Part shown: piece by piece, positions 3,608 through 54,481 of the stretch | Numbering within the stretch: the stretch's first letter is position 1 | How the letters are laid out: each line of letters opens with the position of its first letter | Assembly: GCA_040386515.1 (NCBI GenBank) | Contig: JAZKFG010000002.1 | Span: 15,074-79,073, forward strand | DNA length: 64,000 nucleotides | Origin: Patescibacteria group bacterium | GTDB taxonomy: Bacteria > Patescibacteriota > Minisyncoccia > Phycocordibacterales > CAIZLB01 | Direction of reading: 5' to 3' | Program-made: the position numbers and the translations under genes | Notes under the pieces: model-generated | Told to the model about the DNA's origin: nothing | What the model saw: the letters and a program-made list of their open reading frames with translations, nothing else | Databases searched by the model: none

Positions 3608-3737
3608 TCTTTTCTCGGGCAGGAATTTTAGGCTGGCGATATGGAAAATATCGCCGGCTTTTTTAATGCTTATGGAGGATGTGAGCTTTTCGAATCTCAC
3701 ACGGAGGCAAAGCAGTTTGCCTCCTCTCCTTATAAAC

Positions 3738-10882: not shown

Positions 10883-11389
10883 ATGAAAAGCTATACAAAA
10901 GGGTTCACACTCATAGAACTTCTTGTGGTTATTGCGATAATCGCCCTTTTATCTTCCATAGTTATAGGTGCACTTCAAAGTGCTCGAGAGAAAGCAAAGT
11001 ATTCGCGAGTTCAGAAAGAGTTTAATTCAATTCATACTGCAGTTGAACTCTATGCTCTTGATAACAACGGTCAATATCCGCCAGATGGAAATGCAGCTCT
11101 TCCTACTTCACTCGATACATACTTGAGCGCAACTGGAGTACCAACTCCTCCTTGGCCAGGAACTGTGTATGATTGGGAGAATTGGACCATTGACGGTGCA
11201 AAGGTTTTGCAAATCAGTGTAAGATTTTGTCCTTCTGGTGGGCCATTATCATCATGTCGATTCCCAAATGAGTCTTGGGCATCTGGTTTCGGAGTAAACA
11301 GTTCCTTGTATTATTGTGTTTCAGGAGCATGTCGTCCTCATGAATTTGAGGCTGTGACATATCCAGGGAAGTGTGTGAATTGTAATTAA
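10883..11389 (+). CDS. type IV pilin / pseudopilin (prepilin-type N-terminal methylation domain)
   Basis: MKSYTKGFTLIELLVVIAIIALL is a class III signal peptide (G|FTLIEL). C-terminal Cys pairs resemble a pilin D-region disulfide loop. Confidence 0.8.
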   Translation: MKSYTKGFTLIELLVVIAIIALLSSIVIGALQSAREKAKYSRVQKEFNSIHTAVELYALDNNGQYPPDGNAALPTSLDTYLSATGVPTPPWPGTVYDWENWTIDGAKVLQISVRFCPSGGPLSSCRFPNESWASGFGVNSSLYYCVSGACRPHEFEAVTYPGKCVNCN

Positions 11390-27753: not shown

Positions 27754-28515
27754 ATGAGAAAAATTGTATTAATACTTATATTATTAATATTGGTCTTTAT
27801 ACAATTACAAATAAGTTTAAAAATCCCTTTCGACAAAGAGTTTTTAACAGGTTTGATAAATGGTATTCTTTCTAACTTAGTAATATTTTTTGTAGGTATT
27901 TTTGTAATTGATAAAATTATTAAAAATATCGAAAAAGATAAGTTAAGTTTAATCAATAAGGAAAAATCATTCTTTTTTAAATTCAAATTAAATATCTTTG
28001 CATTAAAGTTGTTGCAGCATTTACAGGTTATATCTGTACAAACAAGGCAAGCTAAATTATCCAACGATAAAGGTATAACTTTCAATTGGGTAATGGATGA
28101 ATTTCAGGCATTAACTCAAAATAAAAGTTTTATTGAAATAGTAAATACTCAGTTAGCAAGAAAGACAAATAAACAGAAATATTTACAAAAACTGAGTGAT
28201 ATTTTGAAGGACGACTCAAAGGGTTTTACGGATCAATTAAAAGAAATTTATCCGCATTACGCACCAGATGTATATGAGCTCACTCAAATATTTCCCAAAG
28301 CAGCTGGATTTATATCAGGGATGGCCACAACTTTTTTGGCAGTAGATAAAGCAAATGAAAAAATAGTTAACACTGAGCAAAAAATTCCAGCGGAATTATT
28401 TACCCATATTCTCACCAAAGTAATGATTTCAGATTTCATTAACTTAAATGACGTATTTGTTAATTTAAAAAAGTTATCAGCACGCTCAGAGAATAATGAT
28501 TTATTCATTAAATAA
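27754..28515 (+). CDS. hypothetical membrane protein in a markedly AT-rich segment
   Basis: 253 aa. N-terminal TM helices. Composition is I/K/N/F-rich, and the DNA is visibly more AT-rich than the flanking genes. Confidence 0.35.
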   Translation: MRKIVLILILLILVFIQLQISLKIPFDKEFLTGLINGILSNLVIFFVGIFVIDKIIKNIEKDKLSLINKEKSFFFKFKLNIFALKLLQHLQVISVQTRQAKLSNDKGITFNWVMDEFQALTQNKSFIEIVNTQLARKTNKQKYLQKLSDILKDDSKGFTDQLKEIYPHYAPDVYELTQIFPKAAGFISGMATTFLAVDKANEKIVNTEQKIPAELFTHILTKVMISDFINLNDVFVNLKKLSARSENNDLFIK

Positions 28516-39439: not shown

Positions 39440-39600
39440 CTATGTACCCGTTTTCAAGGGTACAGGTTAGGCTTTGGAGTCCGTTTTGAGTATTGGTTCA
39501 ATCGATATTCAAGACGGGTTCGCAAAGATTTAGCCCGAGTAGTGCGTGTCTAGCAATTATCAATTATTATTAATAATAGACACTCAAAACGTACTACTTA
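39440..39600 (+). ncRNA. structured 5' leader / candidate cis-regulatory RNA upstream of surface-protein gene
   Basis: Nested hairpin GCCTA-TGTACCC-gttttcaa-GGGTACA-ggt-TAGGC-ttt. A 13-bp stem ccgttttgagtat/atattcaagacgg with two GU pairs, valid only on the plus strand. A split stem agtagt..tgtcta / tagaca..actact. Complementary 9-mers cgttttgag (39483) and ctcaaaacg (39582). Confidence 0.35.
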
Positions 39601-39617
39601 TATTTAAATCAAACATT

Positions 39618-41384
39618 ATGAAAAAAACATTCAAAGCAGCAATTTTCGCTCTTGCACTTACAGTTACTGTAGGAGCATCAGCAGAAGGTTACATGTTCAA
39701 TACTAACCTTACAGTAGGATCAAGAGGAGCTGATGTTACAGCACTTCAGAACATCCTAGCTGCAGGAGGATACTTCACAGCTACTCCTACAGGTTACTTT
39801 GGATCAATTACAAAAACAGCAGTTATGGCTTACCAGAGAGCGAACGCAATTACTCCAGTTTCTGGATACTTCGGTCCTCTTACACGAGCTACTATGAACT
39901 CTTCAGTAACTACTACAACTCCTACAACTCCAGCAGCATGTCCAGTAGGATACGTATGTCAGCCTACAACTTCAACTGGTTCAACATCAGGAAGTGAAGG
40001 ATTCGCAGAGGTTCGAATTGCAGTTACTCCAACAAACAACCCAAATGTACAAATCAGTACAGATGTACCAGTTTACGGAATTGAATTCAGAGCTAAGCAG
40101 TCTGATATTACAGTTGAAAGAATTAACCTAGAAGTAGCAGTTAACGCTGGTACAACAGGATCTCCTTCATATGAAAACCCATCAACATTGATTAACACAG
40201 TTATCATTAAAGATGGATCAACTGTTCTACAGACAATCCCTGTTAACTCAACAACTTTCTCAAAGATCACAACTAACGGTAGTTCAACATACTACCTACA
40301 GCTTGCAGGTCTAGGATTCAAAGTTACTAAGGATACAGCGAAAAACCTATCAGTTTCATTCAACACTAACTCAATCGACTCAGATCGAATCGTTACAGTT
40401 GGAACATACCTAGATCAGGGAATTCGAGTTGTAGACGGACGAGGAATCAGTAGTTACACAACAGTTTCTGAAGATCGAGTACACACTTTCAAGAAGCCAG
40501 GTACATCTACAGTTACTGCTAAAGCAGACGCTACTACTCTTTACGCAAACAACTACCGAGTTAACGTTAATGGAAACGGAGCTGAAAAAGTTCTTTCATC
40601 AACATTTGCTGTTAAATCAGATACAGGTTCTTCAAAGCTAAACAGTGTTACAGCTCAGGTTGTAGCATCTGGAACAACTCCAACAAACCTATACTTGTAC
40701 GACGGATCAACAATTGTTGACGCTCGATCAGTACCAGCACCAGTTTCAGGAACATCTACAGTTATATTTGATGTAAGTAATGCAAACATTACTGTACCAG
40801 CAGATACTACTAAGACTTTCTCAATCAAGGCAGACCTTCCATCAAATACAGCTACAGGAACTGTTATTCAAACAACAGTTACAGCAGTATCTTATGAGAA
40901 ACCAAATGGTTCATCAGCAACTATCGGTGGTCTAACTATTGCAGGTCCTTATAACTACTTTGCTCCAGTTGTTGCTAAATTCAGTAAAGTTTCTTCAACA
41001 GTTACTACACAGTCTAACAACAACATCAACACATCTATCGTTTCAAGTGTAAGACTTGGACTAATGGCAGATGGTGGAGATATTAGTACATCAACTTCTG
41101 CAGTTATCGGTATTAAGAACGTTCAGACAGGAGCTATCCTAGCAACTACAACAGTTTCTGGAACTCCATCTGAAAGTGGTCTAGCGGTATTCGCCGACGG
41201 AGCATCAAAATATGTTGACTTTACAGCAACATTCAGTTCTTCTACTCTACCAGCAGGAACTACAAACGTAAGAACATTCGTACAGTCTGTTACTTGGACA
41301 CCAATGGCGTCTGGAGTTGCAGTTACTCAGTCACGAGGATTCGAAGCATTTGATAGTGATTCATTCGCAACATTCAGTAAATAG
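39618..41384 (+). CDS. secreted cell-surface protein with N-terminal peptidoglycan-binding domain (PG_binding_1); candidate major surface / S-layer-like protein
   Basis: Signal peptide MKKTFKAAIFALALTVTVGASA. LTVGSRGADVTALQNILAAGGYFTATPTGYFGSITKTAVMAYQRANAITPVSGYFGPLT matches PG_binding_1. About 480 aa T/S/V/N-rich beta region. Biased codon use (act/gtt/gct/tca) and a strong terminator downstream. Confidence 0.6.
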   Translation: MKKTFKAAIFALALTVTVGASAEGYMFNTNLTVGSRGADVTALQNILAAGGYFTATPTGYFGSITKTAVMAYQRANAITPVSGYFGPLTRATMNSSVTTTTPTTPAACPVGYVCQPTTSTGSTSGSEGFAEVRIAVTPTNNPNVQISTDVPVYGIEFRAKQSDITVERINLEVAVNAGTTGSPSYENPSTLINTVIIKDGSTVLQTIPVNSTTFSKITTNGSSTYYLQLAGLGFKVTKDTAKNLSVSFNTNSIDSDRIVTVGTYLDQGIRVVDGRGISSYTTVSEDRVHTFKKPGTSTVTAKADATTLYANNYRVNVNGNGAEKVLSSTFAVKSDTGSSKLNSVTAQVVASGTTPTNLYLYDGSTIVDARSVPAPVSGTSTVIFDVSNANITVPADTTKTFSIKADLPSNTATGTVIQTTVTAVSYEKPNGSSATIGGLTIAGPYNYFAPVVAKFSKVSSTVTTQSNNNINTSIVSSVRLGLMADGGDISTSTSAVIGIKNVQTGAILATTTVSGTPSESGLAVFADGASKYVDFTATFSSSTLPAGTTNVRTFVQSVTWTPMASGVAVTQSRGFEAFDSDSFATFSK

Positions 41385-41669: not shown

Positions 41670-42269
41670 ATGAAAGAAGATCATACACATATCGAACATA
41701 TGAACGACTCCTATACAGATATATGGTCTATTTCAGACACAGACTTTAAGAAGCACTTTGAAAATATATATTACGAACATATAGATTCATTATATAGATT
41801 TGCATACTTTAGAATCACTGATACTGAAAAGGCAACAGACTTAGTTCAAGACGTTTTTATTAAATATTTTGCATATTTACAAAAGCTTCGTCAGAACAGG
41901 GAAGTTGAAAATGATACAAATGTAGATTTGAATCATAGAGCCTTTTTATTTCAATCACTACGTAACGCCATTATCGATCAATATCGTCTCAAGAAAAGTT
42001 ATTCTCTTGATGCCTTGATTGACAATGAAGGTTATGATTTGCTTTCTGATGAGGATGCTACATCTTCAACTGAGACAGATATAAGTTTTAAGGAATTGTC
42101 TAAACATATAGTCAAACTTAAACCTGCTCATCAAGAACTCATATACATGCGCTATTTTGAAGGAATGTCAGTTACGGAGATTTCTCTAGCCTTAAATGAA
42201 AGAGAAAACACTATATCTGTTAAACTTCACCGCATTGCTGAGACACTAAAAAAGAACATGCGTTCGTAA
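41670..42269 (+). CDS. ECF-type sigma-70 family RNA polymerase sigma factor
   Basis: Region 2 (DLVQDVFIKYF) and region 4 HTH (MSVTEISLALNERENTISVKLHRI). 199 aa. Confidence 0.7.
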   Translation: MKEDHTHIEHMNDSYTDIWSISDTDFKKHFENIYYEHIDSLYRFAYFRITDTEKATDLVQDVFIKYFAYLQKLRQNREVENDTNVDLNHRAFLFQSLRNAIIDQYRLKKSYSLDALIDNEGYDLLSDEDATSSTETDISFKELSKHIVKLKPAHQELIYMRYFEGMSVTEISLALNERENTISVKLHRIAETLKKNMRS

Positions 42270-42297
42270 AATATTTTCAAAAAAATTATAAAACCCA

Positions 42298-43158
42298 ATG
42301 TCAAAAGACGTTAACACTATCATCAACACACTTCAAAAAATACGACCTAATAAGTCAGTGTGTTTGAGTGATGATAAGAAAGCGTCAATCTTAAAGACTG
42401 TATTTGAAACTCCTATTGCTAAGCCTATTGTTCATCGTCACACATCAAGAATTCCGTCACCATTCATTGTGATGTTTTCTCGATATGTATTGCCAGTATT
42501 TGTCCTATTCTTCGTAGGAAGAGTTTTTGGGGAAGGTATGCTACAGAAGGCTCAATTGGCTATTGGTAACTACAATGATGTTAAGTCAGAGGTAAAGTTA
42601 AATAACTCATTGCTGGAGACTCGGAAGGATATTGTAGCCCTAAAGTCTTTAGATACTCTGAATTCAGATACTGATTTAGCTGAAAAAATAGCCCTTGCTG
42701 ATAAGGTTACAACAGGATCACGAGAGATACGTAATCAGGTGGCCTCTTTGGTTAAAGAGAATAAGATAACAGAAGCAAAACAGGTTGTTCTGACTCTTGA
42801 AACAGCTCTTAAAGCTGATGAACTGTATAAAGTTGCTACATCAGTAAGTAATGCGGTTTTTGAGACAACTGACCTACGCCTTGAATTAGAGCGACAGGAA
42901 ACTGAAGCATCAGTTTCTCGGTCAGCTACTTCATCAACCTCAACTATTAATATTTTAAATGAAAGACTTTCTGCTGATAAGAAAAACCTAGCTAAGCTAG
43001 AGGTTACAGCTTCAACTACAGACATGATTGATTCAGCGAATAAGTCACTTGTAAAATCAGAAGAATACATTAAAGCAGGGGATGTTGAAAACGCTATTAT
43101 ATCACTCCAAGCGCATGATCGTATAGTTGCGGAACTAAAGCTTGTCCTGTTACCATAA
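42298..43158 (+). CDS. putative membrane-anchored anti-sigma factor
   Basis: Short cytoplasmic N-terminus, single TM helix (YVLPVFVLFFVGRVF), coiled-coil/Ser-Thr-rich extracytoplasmic domain. Directly downstream of the ECF sigma. Confidence 0.45.
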   Translation: MSKDVNTIINTLQKIRPNKSVCLSDDKKASILKTVFETPIAKPIVHRHTSRIPSPFIVMFSRYVLPVFVLFFVGRVFGEGMLQKAQLAIGNYNDVKSEVKLNNSLLETRKDIVALKSLDTLNSDTDLAEKIALADKVTTGSREIRNQVASLVKENKITEAKQVVLTLETALKADELYKVATSVSNAVFETTDLRLELERQETEASVSRSATSSTSTINILNERLSADKKNLAKLEVTASTTDMIDSANKSLVKSEEYIKAGDVENAIISLQAHDRIVAELKLVLLP

Positions 43159-43505: not shown

Positions 43506-44186
43506 ATGCTTAAGTTCAATAATGTTACCAAGCTATATCATACAGGTGATATAGCTCTAAAAGATATTAATATTCACATAAAGCCAAAAGAATTTGTTTC
43601 AATAGTAGGGCAGTCTGGCGCAGGTAAGACCACACTACTTAAACTTATTCTTGGTGAAGAAGCTCCAACTGAAGGTGATGTGGTATTTGAAGAAATGAAT
43701 ATTCACAAACTTAAAAGAAAACATATGAATATGTATCGACGTCGAGTGGGTACAGTATTTCAGGATTTTCGTTTATTGCCAGATAAAACTGCATATGAAA
43801 ATGTTGCTTTTGCAATGGAAGCTGCAGGACGAACAGACTCTGAAATAAAATCTGATGTGCCTCATGCACTTGATCTTGTAGGACTGCGACATAAAGCTCA
43901 TAGTTTCCCTGATGAATTGTCAGGAGGGGAGAAACAAAGAGTTGCAATTGCACGAGCTATTGTGAATCAGCCTGAACTTATTATTGCAGATGAGCCGACA
44001 GGAAACCTTGATCCTATTAACACATACGAAATTATTCAGCTCCTTAAAAAAATAAATGATTTAGGTACAACTATTTTACTTACAACACACAACGTGGGTG
44101 TAATTGATAATCTTGGTCGAAGAGTTATTACTATTAAAGATGGAAAAGTTGCGCTTGACAGTATAGAAGGAAAATACATTTTATAA
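43506..44186 (+). CDS. ftsE: cell division ATP-binding protein FtsE
   Basis: ABC ATPase with Walker A (GQSGAGKTT), signature LSGGEKQR and Walker B (IIADEPT). Paired with ftsX. Confidence 0.85.
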   Translation: MLKFNNVTKLYHTGDIALKDINIHIKPKEFVSIVGQSGAGKTTLLKLILGEEAPTEGDVVFEEMNIHKLKRKHMNMYRRRVGTVFQDFRLLPDKTAYENVAFAMEAAGRTDSEIKSDVPHALDLVGLRHKAHSFPDELSGGEKQRVAIARAIVNQPELIIADEPTGNLDPINTYEIIQLLKKINDLGTTILLTTHNVGVIDNLGRRVITIKDGKVALDSIEGKYIL

Positions 44187-44213
44187 TTTAATTCTTAATA
44201 CCATACATATCAC

Positions 44214-45137
44214 ATGATTATCACAAAATTAAGACGTACAATAAAATCAGGAGCAGTAAGTTTTTGGCGAAATAGTTCGGTATCGCTTGCGTCAGTTCTT
44301 ATCATGACAGTGACGCTTACTGTTATTTCTATGATTCTTTTCTTCGGAGTTGTAATGTCATCAACGCTCGAAACTATTAAAAATAAAGTTGATATAAATG
44401 TGTACTTTATCAAGAGTGCGCCAGAGGATGAAATGCTTGCACTAGCTGAAAGCTTGAAGCAAATGCCTGAAATATCAACAGTGGACTATATTTCACGTAA
44501 GCAGGCCTATGATACCTTTAGAGCACGACATGAAGGAGAAGAAGCAACTCTTCAAGCTCTTGATGAGATTGGAGAAAATCCACTTCCTGCAAGTTTGAAT
44601 ATTAAAGCCAAAGATCCTTCACAATACGATACAATTGTAGAAGCATTGAAAGGAAAAGAGGTTGCTGTAAATGATGATGGAATCATTGATAAAATTAACT
44701 ATACAAAGAACAAAGAAGCGATTGATGCGATTACTCGTATTATTGCAGCATCAAATAAGCTTGGATTTTTGATAGCACTATTCTTTGCAGCGGTTTCAAT
44801 TCTTATTACCTTTAACACTGTTCGATTAGCTATTTATATTTTCCGAGAAGAGATTTCAGTTATGCGATTGGTGGGTGCGAGTGAGACATATATTCGTGGT
44901 CCGTTCGTGACTGTAGGAATACTGTACGGAGTTGTGTCAGCTGTTGTGACCATACTCATATTGTTGCCGCTAACGCATTCGCTTGGAGCATGGACAGATA
45001 AGTTAGGAACAGGTATGAACTTGTTTGCATACTATCAAGCAAATCTGCCAATGATTATTCTTTCTCTTGTTGTTGCAGGAACAGTGCTTGGGGCGATATC
45101 AAGTTATCTTGCTATTAGAAGATATTTGAAAGTATAA
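44214..45137 (+). CDS. ftsX: cell division permease FtsX
   Basis: Four TM helices, with a large extracytoplasmic loop after TM1. Follows ftsE. Confidence 0.8.
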   Translation: MIITKLRRTIKSGAVSFWRNSSVSLASVLIMTVTLTVISMILFFGVVMSSTLETIKNKVDINVYFIKSAPEDEMLALAESLKQMPEISTVDYISRKQAYDTFRARHEGEEATLQALDEIGENPLPASLNIKAKDPSQYDTIVEALKGKEVAVNDDGIIDKINYTKNKEAIDAITRIIAASNKLGFLIALFFAAVSILITFNTVRLAIYIFREEISVMRLVGASETYIRGPFVTVGILYGVVSAVVTILILLPLTHSLGAWTDKLGTGMNLFAYYQANLPMIILSLVVAGTVLGAISSYLAIRRYLKV

Positions 45138-45164
45138 AGTTTGGAAAATAATATAAAAAAAGAA

Positions 45165-45195
45165 GGTCGGAATCCGTGATGGACTCCGACCTTTT
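45165..45195 (+). terminator. hairpin terminator after ftsX
   Basis: ggtcggaatccgtgatggactccgacc followed by tttt. Confidence 0.55.
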
Positions 45196-45223
45196 GGGTT
45201 GGTGTTGAAACGAGTTTCAGTGA

Positions 45224-45847
45224 TTAGCGAACTCCGCGAGGGCGGGGTGCTGGGCGGCGGTAGGCGTTGCCTTGATAACCGCTGGACTGATATGTGGGCA
45301 GGCGTCCTGCGTAGCCGCTGGATTGGTAGGTAGGCAGATTGCCCTTATACGTATTTTCGTACGTAATCGGGGCTCCGCGGTAAACGGCCGCAGGGTACCC
45401 TCCTCCCAGATTGCTCTGGTCGTTCGGGTTGCTGGAGTAACGTCCTCCTTGAGGGTTGCCGTATCCGACAGGTCCTTGTGGCTGGTTGTAACCGCCGTTG
45501 TAGCCGGGCTGCAGTGAACGCTGATAGCGGCTCATCTCGGAGTTTACCGGCGGGCGCATCTGGATTTGAGCCTGGCCTTGCTGCCAGCGGAGGTACTCAT
45601 TGTACTCGCGGCGCTCCTGCTCCATTTGAAGTCGCTGTGCTTCGCGGCGGGAACGTTCGTTCATTTCCTGCATTTCCCGCTGATACTGGGCCCGGAGCTG
45701 ATCCTGGCGTTGTAAGTACTGTGCGTGCTGTTCTGGACTCATTGGCGCTCCGCGAACTTCGCGTTGGGCTTGGGCTTGGGTTGTGCCACAGGCGGTGAAA
45801 AGGCAAGCGAAAACGCCTGCGAGAATCATCTGAATGGTTTGTTTCAT
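45224..45847 (-). CDS. GC-rich lipoprotein with Gln/Arg-rich coiled region and Gly/Tyr-rich repeats; compositionally foreign
   Basis: Lipobox MKQTIQMILAGVFACLFTAC|G. Local GC about 60% versus about 38% in flanks. Repeats PTYQSSGYAGRL / PTYQSSGYQGNAY. Confidence 0.6.
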   Translation of the reverse strand: MKQTIQMILAGVFACLFTACGTTQAQAQREVRGAPMSPEQHAQYLQRQDQLRAQYQREMQEMNERSRREAQRLQMEQERREYNEYLRWQQGQAQIQMRPPVNSEMSRYQRSLQPGYNGGYNQPQGPVGYGNPQGGRYSSNPNDQSNLGGGYPAAVYRGAPITYENTYKGNLPTYQSSGYAGRLPTYQSSGYQGNAYRRPAPRPRGVR

Positions 45848-45899
45848 GTTGATGTGCTTGGGTAGGTGGTGGTTGTGAGGGGGATACATTTCCTTACCT

Positions 45900-45945
45900 C
45901 TACTATTATATTATAGCACTTTTAGACATAAAAAGCAAGTATGTA
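45900..45945 (-). promoter_or_regulatory. sigma70-like promoter (TTGCTT-17 nt-TATAAT on minus strand) driving the GC-rich lipoprotein gene
   Basis: Minus strand reads acTTGCTTtttatgtctaaaagtgcTATAATataat. The AT-rich promoter abuts the GC-rich CDS. Confidence 0.45.
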
Positions 45946-46050
45946 CCCCTCATTTAACCCCTAAAACTAGCCCATACCCCACAAAACCCCAATAAACAAG
46001 GGCTTTTTTGGACGATATAGCCAAATGAGTAATCATGGTATACTTTTTAC

Positions 46051-47106
46051 ATGAATATACAAACACTGCACGAAACTATTGAAAAAATATTCCAGCCTAA
46101 GAAAGGGGTATTGGCAGCTGACGAAAGTCCAGCCTCTATTCATAAGAGATTTGAAGCTCTAGGAATACCATTAACAGAAGAGAATAGATTGGGGTATAGA
46201 ACAGCTATTGTAGGAACTCCGAATCTGAGCAATCAGATCAGTGGAATTATATTTCAAGACGAGACTTTTAGACAAACTATTGACGGCAAAACATTTGCAG
46301 AATACTGTACTGAACATGGTATTGTTCCAGGTATAAAAGTTGATAAAGGACTTATTGATTTGCCAAATTTTCCAGGAGAAAAATTAACACTTGGACTTGA
46401 TGGATTAAAAGAAAGAATGGAAGAATATTATGCGCTTGGAGCTCGATTCTGCAAATGGCGAGCAGTAGTTGATGTGCATGCATCAACAGAAGAGGGTATC
46501 GCAGCAAACATGAGAAACCTCGCGCTCTATGCTTCTATTGCACAGCAAGCTGGAATTGTGCCAATGGTTGAACCAGAAGTATTGTATGACGGAACACATT
46601 TTATGCATGAGACAAAAGAAAAAATGCTGTACACTCTTACTCATCTTTTTGGTGAATTGGCTTTGTATAAAGTTGATATTACAGGAGTAATACTTAAAAC
46701 ATCTATGGTACTTCCTGGACTTAAGAGTGGGGAAGAAATTACTACAACTGAAGTTGCGCATGAGACAGCATTATTGCTTAGAACAACAGTACCTAAAAAT
46801 ATCGGAGGAGTTGTATTTCTTTCAGGAGGTCAGCAGCCAATTCAAGCATCAGAAAATCTTTCAGAAATAATGAAACTTCGACCATATGATTTTCCTATAA
46901 CATATTCATACTCACGAGCAATACAAGATCCAGTTCTGGCATATTTCTCAAAGCATATCAGTGATACTGATTTAACACCTGTACGAAATATATTAGTTGA
47001 TAGATTGGATATGAATACACTTTCGCTTACGGGAGAATATGAACAGTCAAAAGAAACAGGAATTTCAGCACATGTAGAGAAAGTTACAGGAAGTCAGGAT
47101 TTATAG
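46051..47106 (+). CDS. fba: fructose-bisphosphate aldolase, class I
   Basis: GVLAADESPASIHKRFEALGI...ENRLGYR and the Schiff-base lysine region resemble class I FBA. 351 aa. Confidence 0.75.
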   Translation: MNIQTLHETIEKIFQPKKGVLAADESPASIHKRFEALGIPLTEENRLGYRTAIVGTPNLSNQISGIIFQDETFRQTIDGKTFAEYCTEHGIVPGIKVDKGLIDLPNFPGEKLTLGLDGLKERMEEYYALGARFCKWRAVVDVHASTEEGIAANMRNLALYASIAQQAGIVPMVEPEVLYDGTHFMHETKEKMLYTLTHLFGELALYKVDITGVILKTSMVLPGLKSGEEITTTEVAHETALLLRTTVPKNIGGVVFLSGGQQPIQASENLSEIMKLRPYDFPITYSYSRAIQDPVLAYFSKHISDTDLTPVRNILVDRLDMNTLSLTGEYEQSKETGISAHVEKVTGSQDL

Positions 47107-47138: not shown

Positions 47139-47930
47139 ATGCAAAAAAACCAAAAAATTATATTAACAATTATCGTCATCTTTTTCTTTGCTGCGTCAGT
47201 ATACTTTTTATCTGGAGGAATTCATAGAAATCCAGCTGTAGAAAATGAAGCAACTACGACGTTACCTGTTGCAAATGCTCTTAATATCAAAGTAGAAGCA
47301 TTGTCAGCATCATCAACTAATCTTGAATTACTTGTTGAATATCCTCAGATTACAAATGCTGCGCCCGAATCTGCTGCTGAAGGTATTAACGCACAGCTTA
47401 AAAAAGATGCTAAAGCTGAATATGATAGTGCTATGATTGATTTGAAAAAAGCACAAGCAGATCCTGCGACCGATGGAGCCGGATGGGATGTTATTTTTCA
47501 AAAGAAGTTAATCAAAGATAAAACATATACAAACAACGAAACAGGCATATTGTCTGTTGCATACACAGGATATCAGGATACAGGAGGGGCACATGGAACA
47601 CCTTTTTACATGTCACAAACTATTGATACAAAATCAAGTAATACATTAACTCTAAAAGATTTATTGAAAGGTGATTATGAAGCTGCAATTATCAAAGAAG
47701 TTGATAGTCAAATCAGAAGTGCAGCATCAACATGTCTTAGATGTGATCAGTTGGCAGGAGATTTGCAGGACTTGAAAGCGTTTGTTCCGGAATCATTTGT
47801 TTTAAGTGATCAAGGTATTACATTTTTGTTTGGATCATATGACTTGGGATCTTATGCATCAACTGCTGGTGGACAAGAAGTCTTTATTGATAAGGAATTC
47901 TTGGCCCCATATATTCTTCGAAATTGGTAA
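47139..47930 (+). CDS. DUF4163/DUF3298 domain protein (RsiV/PdaC-like extracytoplasmic module)
   Basis: N-terminal TM helix. Contains the YTGYQDTGGAHG motif characteristic of DUF3298. Confidence 0.6.
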   Translation: MQKNQKIILTIIVIFFFAASVYFLSGGIHRNPAVENEATTTLPVANALNIKVEALSASSTNLELLVEYPQITNAAPESAAEGINAQLKKDAKAEYDSAMIDLKKAQADPATDGAGWDVIFQKKLIKDKTYTNNETGILSVAYTGYQDTGGAHGTPFYMSQTIDTKSSNTLTLKDLLKGDYEAAIIKEVDSQIRSAASTCLRCDQLAGDLQDLKAFVPESFVLSDQGITFLFGSYDLGSYASTAGGQEVFIDKEFLAPYILRNW

Positions 47931-47962
47931 TTGTCTTACATGAAGTATGGTAATATTTTAGT

Positions 47963-48709
47963 ATGCGTTTATTTCTTGCTTACACAGCACTATTGATAGG
48001 CATTGTGTTTCTTCAGTCACGCACTGGAGGAACTATTAATGCTGACATGGTTGTAGTTGCAACATCAACTCCTGTTGCAACGTCTTCGTTGGTTTATAAA
48101 GACTTTAAACTTAAAGTTCCATATTATCATCAGCAATATCCAAACAGCTGTGAAGCTGCGTCCCTTAGAATGGCTTTGGCATATAAAGGAATTTTGAAAA
48201 ATGATATACAGATAGTTACTCAATTTACATATAAACCTACAATTAAAGATTATAAAAATAATATTTGGACAGATCCTCAGAAACAGTATGTGGGATTTGT
48301 TGATATTGCAGGACGGCCAAATGGTGGATATGGCGTGTACGGTTTGCCAGTATTAAAGGCTGTTCAGGCTTTTGGCAGAACTGGTGAATATGCTACAGGA
48401 ACTGCTATAACAGCTCAGTTCTTGACAAAAGAACTTGATGCAAAAAACCCTGTTGTTATTTGGGGTTATACATCGTTTAGAGAGGCTCCATATACATGGA
48501 AGACTACTGATGGGACAATTGTTAAAGCAATGCAAGGGGAGCATGCACGGCTTGTTGTGGGGTATAAAGGAACTGCAGCAAAGCCTGTAGGATTTTATGT
48601 ACATGATCCCTTTACAGGAAAGGCTAATGAATATTGGACAACAGCAAAGCTTATGGATCATATGCAGAAAGTGCCAGGGGTGACGGATCAGGCTGTAACC
48701 GTTCGATAA
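47963..48709 (+). CDS. peptidase C39-like (YvpB family) secreted protein
   Basis: Signal peptide. VPYYHQQYPNSCEAASLRMALAYKGI contains the catalytic Cys context of C39-like/YvpB proteins. Confidence 0.6.
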   Translation: MRLFLAYTALLIGIVFLQSRTGGTINADMVVVATSTPVATSSLVYKDFKLKVPYYHQQYPNSCEAASLRMALAYKGILKNDIQIVTQFTYKPTIKDYKNNIWTDPQKQYVGFVDIAGRPNGGYGVYGLPVLKAVQAFGRTGEYATGTAITAQFLTKELDAKNPVVIWGYTSFREAPYTWKTTDGTIVKAMQGEHARLVVGYKGTAAKPVGFYVHDPFTGKANEYWTTAKLMDHMQKVPGVTDQAVTVR

Positions 48710-53701: not shown

Positions 53702-54481
53702 TTATTTCGTAGCCAACATCTGATCTATAATCTTCTTCATTACATCGTAAGGAAGAGCTCCGAGACCTTGACCTTGTTCATTTACAAGAGGAATGTTTTC
53801 ACCTTTGAATTGAATAACAGTATACGGTGTACCTGCTGCGCCTGCTTTTGCTCCAGCATCATATGATGCTTTTACTTTTTCAGCATATTTTCCACTATCG
53901 ATACATGCTTTCATCTTAGCTTTATCAAGTCCTACTTTGGCTGCAAGATCAGGAAGAGTTGCAGGATCTAAACCATCATTAGATTTTGTAGTTGCATAAA
54001 TCTCATCTATATATTTCCAGAATGCATCTTTACCTCCAAGTTCTGTTGCACACTCTGTTGCTTCAGCTTCTTTGGCTGCATACTTATGAAGTACTTGGTC
54101 TCCATATGAAAGAGGGAAATGTCGATATACCCAAACAACTTGCTTATTTGAACCATATTCAGCAAAAATCTTTTTCATTGTCTCGTGATACACTTTACAG
54201 AATGGACACTCAGTATCTGAGTATTCAATGATTGCGATTTTTGCATCTTTATCTCCTCGTAAATGATCTTCATCTGTAACTTTGGCAACTTCTATTTCTG
54301 GAGCCTGTAGGGCGCCATTAATAAGATCTTTACCATTACTTGCTGTAGTATCAGATCCTTTTTTTTCACTTGCATAAACTCCAAATGCAATAAGGGCTCC
54401 TGCAATTAGAATTGAAAGTGGCATGATAAGCTGCTTCATGTCAAAAGGTTTTTGTGTTTGATTGTGTGTTGTTTGTTCCAT
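53702..54481 (-). CDS. DsbA-family thiol:disulfide oxidoreductase
   Basis: N-terminal TM anchor. Thioredoxin-fold active site CPFC (YSDTECPFCKVYH). Confidence 0.65.
   Translation of the reverse strand: MEQTTHNQTQKPFDMKQLIMPLSILIAGALIAFGVYASEKKGSDTTASNGKDLINGALQAPEIEVAKVTDEDHLRGDKDAKIAIIEYSDTECPFCKVYHETMKKIFAEYGSNKQVVWVYRHFPLSYGDQVLHKYAAKEAEATECATELGGKDAFWKYIDEIYATTKSNDGLDPATLPDLAAKVGLDKAKMKACIDSGKYAEKVKASYDAGAKAGAAGTPYTVIQFKGENIPLVNEQGQGLGALPYDVMKKIIDQMLATK

Follow-up and report, generated by a model that had tools for sequence, protein, structure and literature searches.

Mollicute variable surface lipoproteins, such as Vlp, Vsp, Vsa and Vpma of Mycoplasma and MBA of Ureaplasma, share a general architecture in which a conserved 5' part is joined to a variable, repetitive mature part. 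They are the closest analogy for the gene described here, a putative lipoprotein gene located at 45224–45847 on the minus strand of a 64,000-nucleotide stretch of Patescibacteria DNA (the window), and rich in guanine plus cytosine (GC). In both cases a conserved promoter, leader and lipoprotein signal peptide are followed by a fast-changing, low-complexity mature part with in-frame indels, and in both cases the bacteria are small-genome, wall-associated or host-dependent organisms. The gene of the window differs from the Mollicute ones in being single-copy and syntenic, with no gene family or switch seen at its locus, in having just one short two-copy repeat, and in sharing no sequence similarity with them. 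Unlike this gene, Mollicute genes are not known to be GC-rich at synonymous sites. Repeats have been described in the lipoprotein genes of M. bovis (PMC3120828); in the family studied here, they are modest in the window's gene and clearer in that of the sister locus L001.

Like Braun's lipoprotein Lpp and other small, abundant envelope lipoproteins, the product is a small lipobox protein whose gene has its own strong-looking promoter and terminator, and in the window's version a long helix directly follows the anchor. Unlike Lpp, to which it has no homology, it lacks a C-terminal Lys, its helix is absent in all relatives, and the organism is presumably monoderm. Mycobacterial PE_PGRS-type proteins are Gly-rich, low-complexity, fast-evolving and envelope-associated, and are encoded by genes more GC-rich than their genome. 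These same traits (Gly richness, low complexity, fast evolution and above-genome GC) are found in the gene described here, but PE_PGRS proteins start with an N-terminal PE in place of a lipobox, form a large multigene family in a GC-rich genome, and show no sequence similarity to our family. Finally, the tail of the protein recalls prion-like or FUS-type low-complexity domains ([G/S]Y[G/S], Q/N-rich) and Tyr/Gly-rich adhesive proteins in its composition, motifs and predicted disorder. This resemblance is compositional only, the family described here being bacterial and predicted to be extracytoplasmic and lipid-anchored.

Taken as a whole, the explanation that we retain, and consider probable, is that of a vertically inherited, clade-restricted and fast-evolving gene encoding a disordered envelope lipoprotein, whose GC bias is maintained. 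The sequence comparisons show that 45224–45847(-) is a genuine protein-coding gene, vertically inherited and restricted to one clade, in a Patescibacteria (Paceibacteria/Parcubacteria-type) genome, that it comes with a conserved sigma-70-type promoter of its own, ~56 nucleotides of leader and a hairpin terminator toward ftsX, and that it has been carried next to ftsX since the common ancestor of the clade. The coding sequence (207 amino acids, TAA stop at 45224–45226) is delimited by the open reading frame list, its composition, an ATGAAA start aligned in five loci, and positional homologues that have a signal peptide and a Cys.

The gene stands out first of all by its composition. The window has an overall GC content of 36.9%, with a mean of 0.370 and a standard deviation of 0.034 in 600-bp windows. 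Those exceeding 0.47 are confined to 44851–46150, and the maximum, 0.592 at 45201–45800, lies ~6.6 standard deviations over the mean. At 58.7% GC, 45224–45847(-) is the sole high-GC outlier of the 64 kb, and its GC contents at the first, second and third codon positions (GC1/2/3) are 0.66/0.48/0.62 vs a window background of 0.50/0.36/0.27. The GC climb begins right past a hairpin at 45163–45193, itself 3' of ftsX (stop codon at 45135–45137); the AT-rich level is regained at ~45890 on the promoter side, and background GC is reached again more than ~60 nucleotides outside the gene on both sides. The sliding-window run thus bears out the initial annotation of this DNA, which had described a single-gene GC-rich island of about 60% with abrupt boundaries. 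An outlier of the opposite kind, an AT-rich open reading frame (GC 0.27) at 27754–28515(+), encodes a 253-residue Ile/Leu/Lys-rich, membrane-like product without Pfam match.

The convergent neighbour ftsX (44214–45137(+); Pfam FtsX_ECD and FtsX, and related loci) serves as the synteny anchor. With FtsX as the query, 160 related loci were obtained, each of them in an assembly or metagenome of Patescibacteria (Parcubacteria/Paceibacteria-type), and the clade set was defined as those loci whose FtsX is 70–85% identical to that of the window and whose contig continues past ftsX. A lipobox gene follows ftsX, in convergent orientation, in 15/15 clade assemblies reaching past ftsX. In 13 of the 15 (L001–L007, L026 and L081–L085), it has the GC-rich form (+0.20 GC, +0.33 GC3), and the highest-GC stretch of the locus directly follows ftsX. 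The homologues share one layout, namely an MK... signal peptide ending in [ST/A]-S/A-C, then 70–150 residues rich in G, P, Y, Q and R; in L005, a run of N at ~11330–11345 leaves four unknown residues in the protein. The other two assemblies carry a short form of 55 residues (MKSLLYSALVLTMIILLQGC...ENGW; GC 0.42 vs 0.31), at 3653–3820 in L008 and 10995–11162(-) in L009. As both are nested within the clade, beside L085 in the FtsX tree, they suggest that the GC-rich long tail can be lost and the anchor kept. In the FtsX neighbour-joining tree, the gene-bearing loci form one clade, and the outgroups (FtsX at most 62% identical) have other genes after ftsX and no lipobox gene. The distribution is therefore not the patchy one of a genomic island, the gene being absent from the outgroups only.

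From composition alone, one could believe that this single gene came recently from a GC-rich donor and was set behind a native promoter, in line with the horizontal acquisition that the initial annotation had proposed. It does resemble a horizontally acquired genomic islet in its sharp compositional boundaries and atypical codon usage (GC3 of 0.62 vs 0.27; CGC making up 74% of Arg codons vs 0–3%). However, it departs from an islet in its clade-wide fixed position, its native conserved promoter, a bias that persists beyond synonymous saturation, and the lack of mobility genes, flanking repeats or a donor. A recent transfer is thus highly improbable, given that the same-site gene is found in 13 assemblies, and its short form in two, across saturated divergence with promoter and start conserved, that its GC3 excess tracks host GC3, and that GCG, ACG and TCG, which are typical of GC-rich genomes, are not enriched. 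The searches for a donor are in agreement with this: no homologue was found in protein sets, plasmids or phages. A word-indexed search of 5.8 billion clustered proteins and a full HMMER search over 1.84 billion representatives each returned the protein itself only, and a family-profile search returned, beyond the members, only near-copies of two relatives. Pfam, NCBIfam, PHROGs and PDB sequence searches gave sub-threshold noise only, and tblastn against plasmids and phages gave no match. Signatures of mobility at the gene (nearby tRNA, flanking direct repeats, mobility genes) were likewise absent. Homologues of the same GC content being present in related genomes, the gene is ancestral to the clade. 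An ancient transfer into the clade ancestor could conceivably be its ultimate origin, which would not explain its present composition.

The initial annotation fared better in rejecting an assembly chimera. The joining of a foreign GC-rich fragment during assembly or binning would account for the abrupt GC change, but we give it a negligible probability, as 13 independent assemblies, produced in different studies, show this very arrangement, with the short form in two more, and as the hairpin terminator and native-type promoter flank the gene exactly.

What has been kept and what has changed at the locus is best seen in an alignment of five loci (the window, L001, L026, L081 and L083). The promoter, the invariant ATGAAA start and the terminator/ftsX 3' region can be aligned, whereas the mature coding region cannot. 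By composition-corrected BLASTP, several pairs of relatives are recognizably similar (L004–L005, 6e-18; L001–L081, 4e-9; L026–L081, 3e-6; L002–L026, 2e-6), and the window protein resembles the other members in its signal peptide only. Since its mature region is dissimilar, it is by position, promoter, start codon and signal peptide that the window gene is identified as an orthologue. Between species, the mature part changes rapidly, in-frame indels being frequent and short repeats present, and what can still be aligned is the signal peptide and some pieces of a W/Y motif at the C-terminus. At shorter range, the family-profile search added P0002, a close relative of L002; the two differ by a synonymous divergence (dS) of 0.22, with a dN/dS ratio of 0.35 and four single-codon in-frame indels in ~100 codons. 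These comparisons point to purifying selection and ready length change over short distances, and to divergence past recognition over long ones.

Mutual comparison of the off-frame translations of 14 family genes gave no off-frame matches, and nucleotide similarity was limited to the signal-peptide region and sister pairs. Repeated frameshift mixing as a source of the divergence is therefore unsupported, there being no off-frame similarity among orthologues. Neither a homopolymer nor a long tandem array was found in the promoter or coding sequence, and the ftsX-neighbourhood loci each contain a single gene, with no invertible or phase-variable switch seen.

The GC richness could be a mere by-product of a Gly/Pro/Arg/Ala-rich protein, without any effect at the nucleotide level. 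Gly, Pro, Arg and Gln are each 2–4 times as frequent as in the genome, and Ala is also abundant; with genome codon usage, this amino-acid composition alone lifts the expected GC from 0.375 to 0.46. It accounts for ~40% of the GC excess, the remainder being synonymous. Indeed, the GC of 0.46 and GC3 of 0.29 expected from protein sequence and genome codon usage are to be compared with the observed 0.587 and 0.62. The same gap in GC3 is found in eight relatives (0.51–0.75 vs 0.20–0.38), and a GC3 gap relative to ftsX is present in all 13 GC-rich relatives. The signal-peptide codons share the bias (GC3 of 0.5–0.8), and Lys is replaced by Arg: in the mature proteins of GC-rich members, Lys amounts to 0–2% (6% in the short L008), vs 7.8% genome-wide. 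As an explanation of the whole, the by-product view is therefore very unlikely. The replacement of Lys by Arg rather suggests that the nucleotide bias also feeds into amino-acid choice. On the other hand, the protein is also enriched in Tyr, Asn, Gln and Met, whose codons are AT-rich, and selection must therefore act at the protein level as well.

At the codon level, the shift is chiefly to C-ending codons, with some G-ending ones. In pooled island genes, TAC reaches 0.72 (0.27 in the background), AAC 0.75 (0.32), ACC 0.67 (0.08), CTC 0.49 (0.08) and CGC 0.35 (0.04), and AGA accounts for 1 of 88 Arg codons, vs 0.36 in the background; GCG, ACG and TCG are not enriched. The question is then whether such a bias is what translational selection ordinarily produces in genes with very high expression. 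L11, NusG and a 588-residue PG-binding surface protein were used as a reference for probable high expression. For two-fold codons, the choices of the window gene match those of the reference genes (TAC 0.72 vs 0.68, AAC 0.67 vs 0.75, CAG 0.60 vs 0.64), and the near-consensus, conserved promoter would also suit high expression. In four- and six-fold boxes, in contrast, the choices are opposite: in the reference genes nearly all codons of these boxes end in A or T (CGC 0.00, GCC 0.03, TCC 0.00, ACC 0.00), whereas the window gene has CGC at 0.74, GCC at 0.44, TCC at 0.42 and ACC at 0.50. The codon usage of the reference genes predicts a GC3 of only 0.32 for the lipoprotein gene. As the four-fold choices are opposite, ordinary translational selection may explain part of the bias, not its bulk, and as the explanation of the bias it is unlikely. 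The third reference protein, encoded at 39546–41384(+), is itself secreted and Thr/Ser-rich, PG_binding_1 being its N-terminal domain. Probably abundant in the wall or at the surface, it has the strongest native codon bias of the window, with a two-fold C/(C+T) of 0.68 and a GC3 of only 0.21.

The persistence of the bias over time is another important point. Synonymous sites of ftsX are saturated between the window and its relatives (dS 1.3–2.5). Over such a distance, foreign DNA subjected to the AT-biased mutation of the host would have converged on host composition, so that something must be keeping the bias up. In 14 lineages, the lipoprotein gene exceeds ftsX in GC3 by +0.33 on average, and this offset correlates with host GC3 (r = 0.66, p = 0.01). 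All these data argue that the synonymous GC preference is a maintained property of the gene and not a relic of import.

To what force could this property be due? It could be selection for a stable transcript (U-poor, structured and long-lived), biased gene conversion, or hairpin-templated mutation. One possibility, advanced tentatively, is that a gene-specific GC-favouring force of one of these kinds has been at work on this single transcription unit for as long as the AT-rich clade has existed, and has shaped both its codons and its protein, with Lys giving way to Arg, an enrichment in Gly, Ala, Arg and Pro, and a disordered chain. Nucleotide composition would then drive a lineage-specific envelope protein, possibly born in the intergenic region 3' of ftsX. 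A narrower sub-hypothesis, compatible with our best explanation and somewhat more doubtful in itself, is that a local GC-biased process, be it biased gene conversion at a surface-protein gene that recombines often or hairpin-templated mutation, keeps the unit GC-rich, and that the disordered, GARP-rich (Gly, Ala, Arg, Pro) and Lys-poor protein is partly its consequence. It would fit the shift of all three codon positions with Lys replaced by Arg, the roughly constant offset that tracks host GC3, and the excess self-complementarity on both strands in most relatives; it is also in agreement with the report that GC content steers orphan proteins toward disorder and disorder-promoting residues (PMC5389847). 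Against it, nothing observed points directly to recombination, the bias stops close to the ends of the transcript although a recombination tract could well run past them, and the enrichment in Tyr, Asn, Gln and Met speaks for selection on the protein too.

The self-complementarity was assessed by comparing the folding energy of each gene with that of its synonymous-codon shuffles. The 14 family genes have a mean folding z of -2.0 (n = 14), vs -0.15 for AT-rich ftsX segments of the same loci (n = 28) and -0.12 for genes from GC-rich relatives (n = 30). The difference between the family and the GC-rich control set is significant (Mann-Whitney p = 2e-4), with a folding z below controls in 11/14 members. 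Most relatives' genes fold 2–6 standard deviations more stably than their shuffles, on both strands; among them are those of L002 (11002–11310), L083 (5034–5333), L085 (4997–5278) and L084 (1541–1864), that of L002 containing palindromic GC runs such as GGCCGGCCGGCC and CCGGAGGAAACCTCCGG. A folding z of -4.4 obtained for the whole transcript was discounted, as it includes the terminator hairpin and relies on 20 shuffles only.

Such folding, together with the fact that a GC-rich island in an AT-rich genome often turns out to be an RNA gene, could indicate that a structured RNA or DNA element is what functions here, the open reading frame being incidental. This is extremely improbable, as the signal peptide, the Cys and the ATGAAA start are conserved throughout the family, the dN/dS is 0.35, indels are in frame, and the window's own gene has no excess structure. 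Rfam searches, at gathering thresholds and at E <= 1, moreover gave only chance matches on the terminator hairpin and no known RNA family.

The predicted protein has three parts. The first is a signal peptide with a lipobox, residues 1–20 (MKQTIQMILAGVFACLFTAC; 45788–45847(-)), with a basic n-region and a hydrophobic h-region (MKQTIQMILAGVFACLF), a layout that all family members have. AlphaFold places a helix at residues 3–19, and the codon of Cys20 is at 45788–45790. The Cys falls within positions 15–35, as in the PROSITE-type pattern, in the window protein and in most relatives. Across 13 aligned family members, it is invariant and the preceding Ser/Ala nearly so, and the -3 residue is variable (F/L/T/M/G/S), which makes the lipobox one of a relaxed type. 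The second part, residues 38–97 (45557–45736(-)), is Q/R/E-rich and is modelled by AlphaFold, from the single sequence, as one continuous helix with a predicted local distance difference test score (pLDDT) of 95–98. This helix is found in the window's version only and is missing from the proteins of all relatives. The third part, residues 98–207 (45227–45556(-)), is a tail rich in Gly, Tyr, Gln, Asn, Ser, Pro and Arg, with YQSSGY, GGY and YGG motifs; its pLDDT of 41–56, the absence of secondary structure in the AlphaFold model and its composition suggest that it is disordered. It contains LPTYQSSGY twice, encoded by two 36-nucleotide units at 45276–45337(-) that form a direct repeat of 81% identity with a spacing of 36. 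The lipobox, the Q/R/E-rich helical region and the G/Y-rich PTYQSSGY repeats of the initial annotation are thus all found again, lipidation itself being a prediction from the pattern. The isoelectric point is 9–10 in 9/15 family members. The family proteins are nearly Lys-free, and there is no C-terminal Lys for linkage to peptidoglycan. A functional tie to FtsX via the coiled-coil-like helix, by analogy with EnvC, PcsB or CwlO, was set aside, the helix being unique to this genome and the two genes being convergent and not co-transcribed.

The gene is flanked by a promoter and a terminator. The promoter (45910–45938(-)), read directly in the sequence, consists of a -35 element TTGCTT (45938–45933), a 17-nucleotide spacer, a TG at 45918–45917 and a -10 element TATAAT (45915–45910), the last two forming an extended -10, TGc-TATAAT (45918–45910). 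A consensus promoter scan did not list TTGCTT, which matches TTGACA at 3/6 positions; the element is nonetheless kept in relatives, the ACTTGCTTTTT...TGnTATAATATA promoter being conserved in the window, L001, L026 and L081, and the -35 element of L083 being TTGACA. The TTGCTT-17-TATAAT promoter of the initial annotation can therefore be retained, as can its description of a native, expressed-looking gene, since the extended -10 is of the type found elsewhere in the window. With a transcription start placed from the position of the promoter, the leader would span ~56 nucleotides (45848–45903(-)), as judged from the sequence, the five-locus alignment and a Shine-Dalgarno survey. It is C/A-rich and G-poor, and has no Shine-Dalgarno motif beside the conserved start at 45847. 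At the other end, the hairpin at 45163–45193, recognized by a terminator scan and as an inverted repeat, lies between the convergent ftsX and lipoprotein genes; it has a 13-pair stem, followed by a T-run in the minus-strand direction and by a weaker T-run in the plus-strand direction. A 20-nucleotide imperfect inverted repeat (45876–45895/45933–45952, 75% complementary) has one arm overlapping the -35 region and the other in the leader, and is not conserved in relatives.

The start codon deserves a comment. The first ATG defines an alternative open reading frame of 221 residues (45224–45889), its in-frame upstream ATG (45887–45889) coming after a purine-rich GAGGTAAGGAA, and the public database entry P0001 (221 residues) starts at that codon. 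The start at 45847 is favoured over that at 45889 because the ATGAAA is conserved in relatives, which suggests that the N-terminus of P0001 is 14 residues too long. In the window as a whole, a Shine-Dalgarno-like motif precedes 4/48 genes. A -10-like box ending 4–11 nucleotides before the start codon is found in 26/48 (15 with TGn), vs 9% of random positions, examples being the boxes close to the starts at 46051, 43506, 50266 and 53702–54481. These counts suggest that the mRNAs of the window are mostly leaderless, about half of the genes appearing so, and the GC-rich gene is among the few of the window that have a long leader.

Several observations nevertheless weigh against the explanation that we favour. 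The mature region of the window protein has no detectable similarity to that of any relative, its sister L001 included. The window's own gene folds no more stably than its shuffles (z = -0.01), and where an excess of structure does occur, it is as strong on the antisense strand as on the sense strand, so that it does not point specifically to the mRNA. Lipidation of the Cys is inferred from the sequence pattern, and almost no other convincing lipobox proteins are encoded in the 1.9 Mb of related loci. A motif scan for Lgt and LspA found neither in the window and the 160 related loci, which cover ftsX neighbourhoods only.

The surroundings of the gene may be related to the envelope. According to Pfam, its neighbours are ftsE and ftsX at 43506–45137(+), and a class-I fructose-bisphosphate aldolase gene at 46051–47106. 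Just upstream of ftsEX, the 41670–43158(+) stretch starts with a gene for a sigma factor of the extracytoplasmic function (ECF) type (41670–42269), followed by that of a 286-residue protein, perhaps its anti-sigma factor, for which a single membrane segment is predicted and Pfam gives no match. Past the aldolase gene, 47139–48709(+) encodes a PdaC/DUF3298 protein and a Peptidase_C39_2 protein. The neighbourhood (ftsEX, the lipoprotein gene, PdaC/DUF3298 and Peptidase_C39_2) would thus have a cell-envelope flavour.

In the mechanism that we propose, the signal peptide would be cut by signal peptidase II and the Cys would be lipid-modified, leaving in the cell envelope a membrane-anchored, mostly disordered and usually basic chain rich in Tyr, Gly, Pro and Gln; in the window's genome, the tail would be held out on a helical stalk of ~60 residues. 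If abundant at the surface of an episymbiotic cell, such a protein could form a coat, act as a spacer or serve as an adhesive tether. As for the synonymous bias, it would come from selection at the transcript level, on mRNA stability or structure, or from a local GC-biased process, for example biased gene conversion at a diversifying surface-protein gene.

A compositional island is thus insufficient to call a horizontal transfer, and it is synteny in relatives that reversed the call here. It is unusual for a synonymous GC excess to persist when the genes of the genome that are probably highly expressed prefer other codons. The present case provides a natural example of one gene kept ~0.33 above genome GC3 across lineages with saturated synonymous divergence, and metagenomic polymorphism of this gene could separate mRNA selection from biased gene conversion in bacteria. 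With regard to the protein, our results define an unannotated, clade-specific family of putative envelope proteins, in a phylum about which little is known, with a conserved, strong-looking promoter. It would be a new, clade-restricted family of disordered envelope lipoproteins, for which a coat, spacer or adhesive role in an episymbiont is plausible, and which is a candidate for a main constituent of the cell surface in organisms whose presumed way of life is attachment to other cells.

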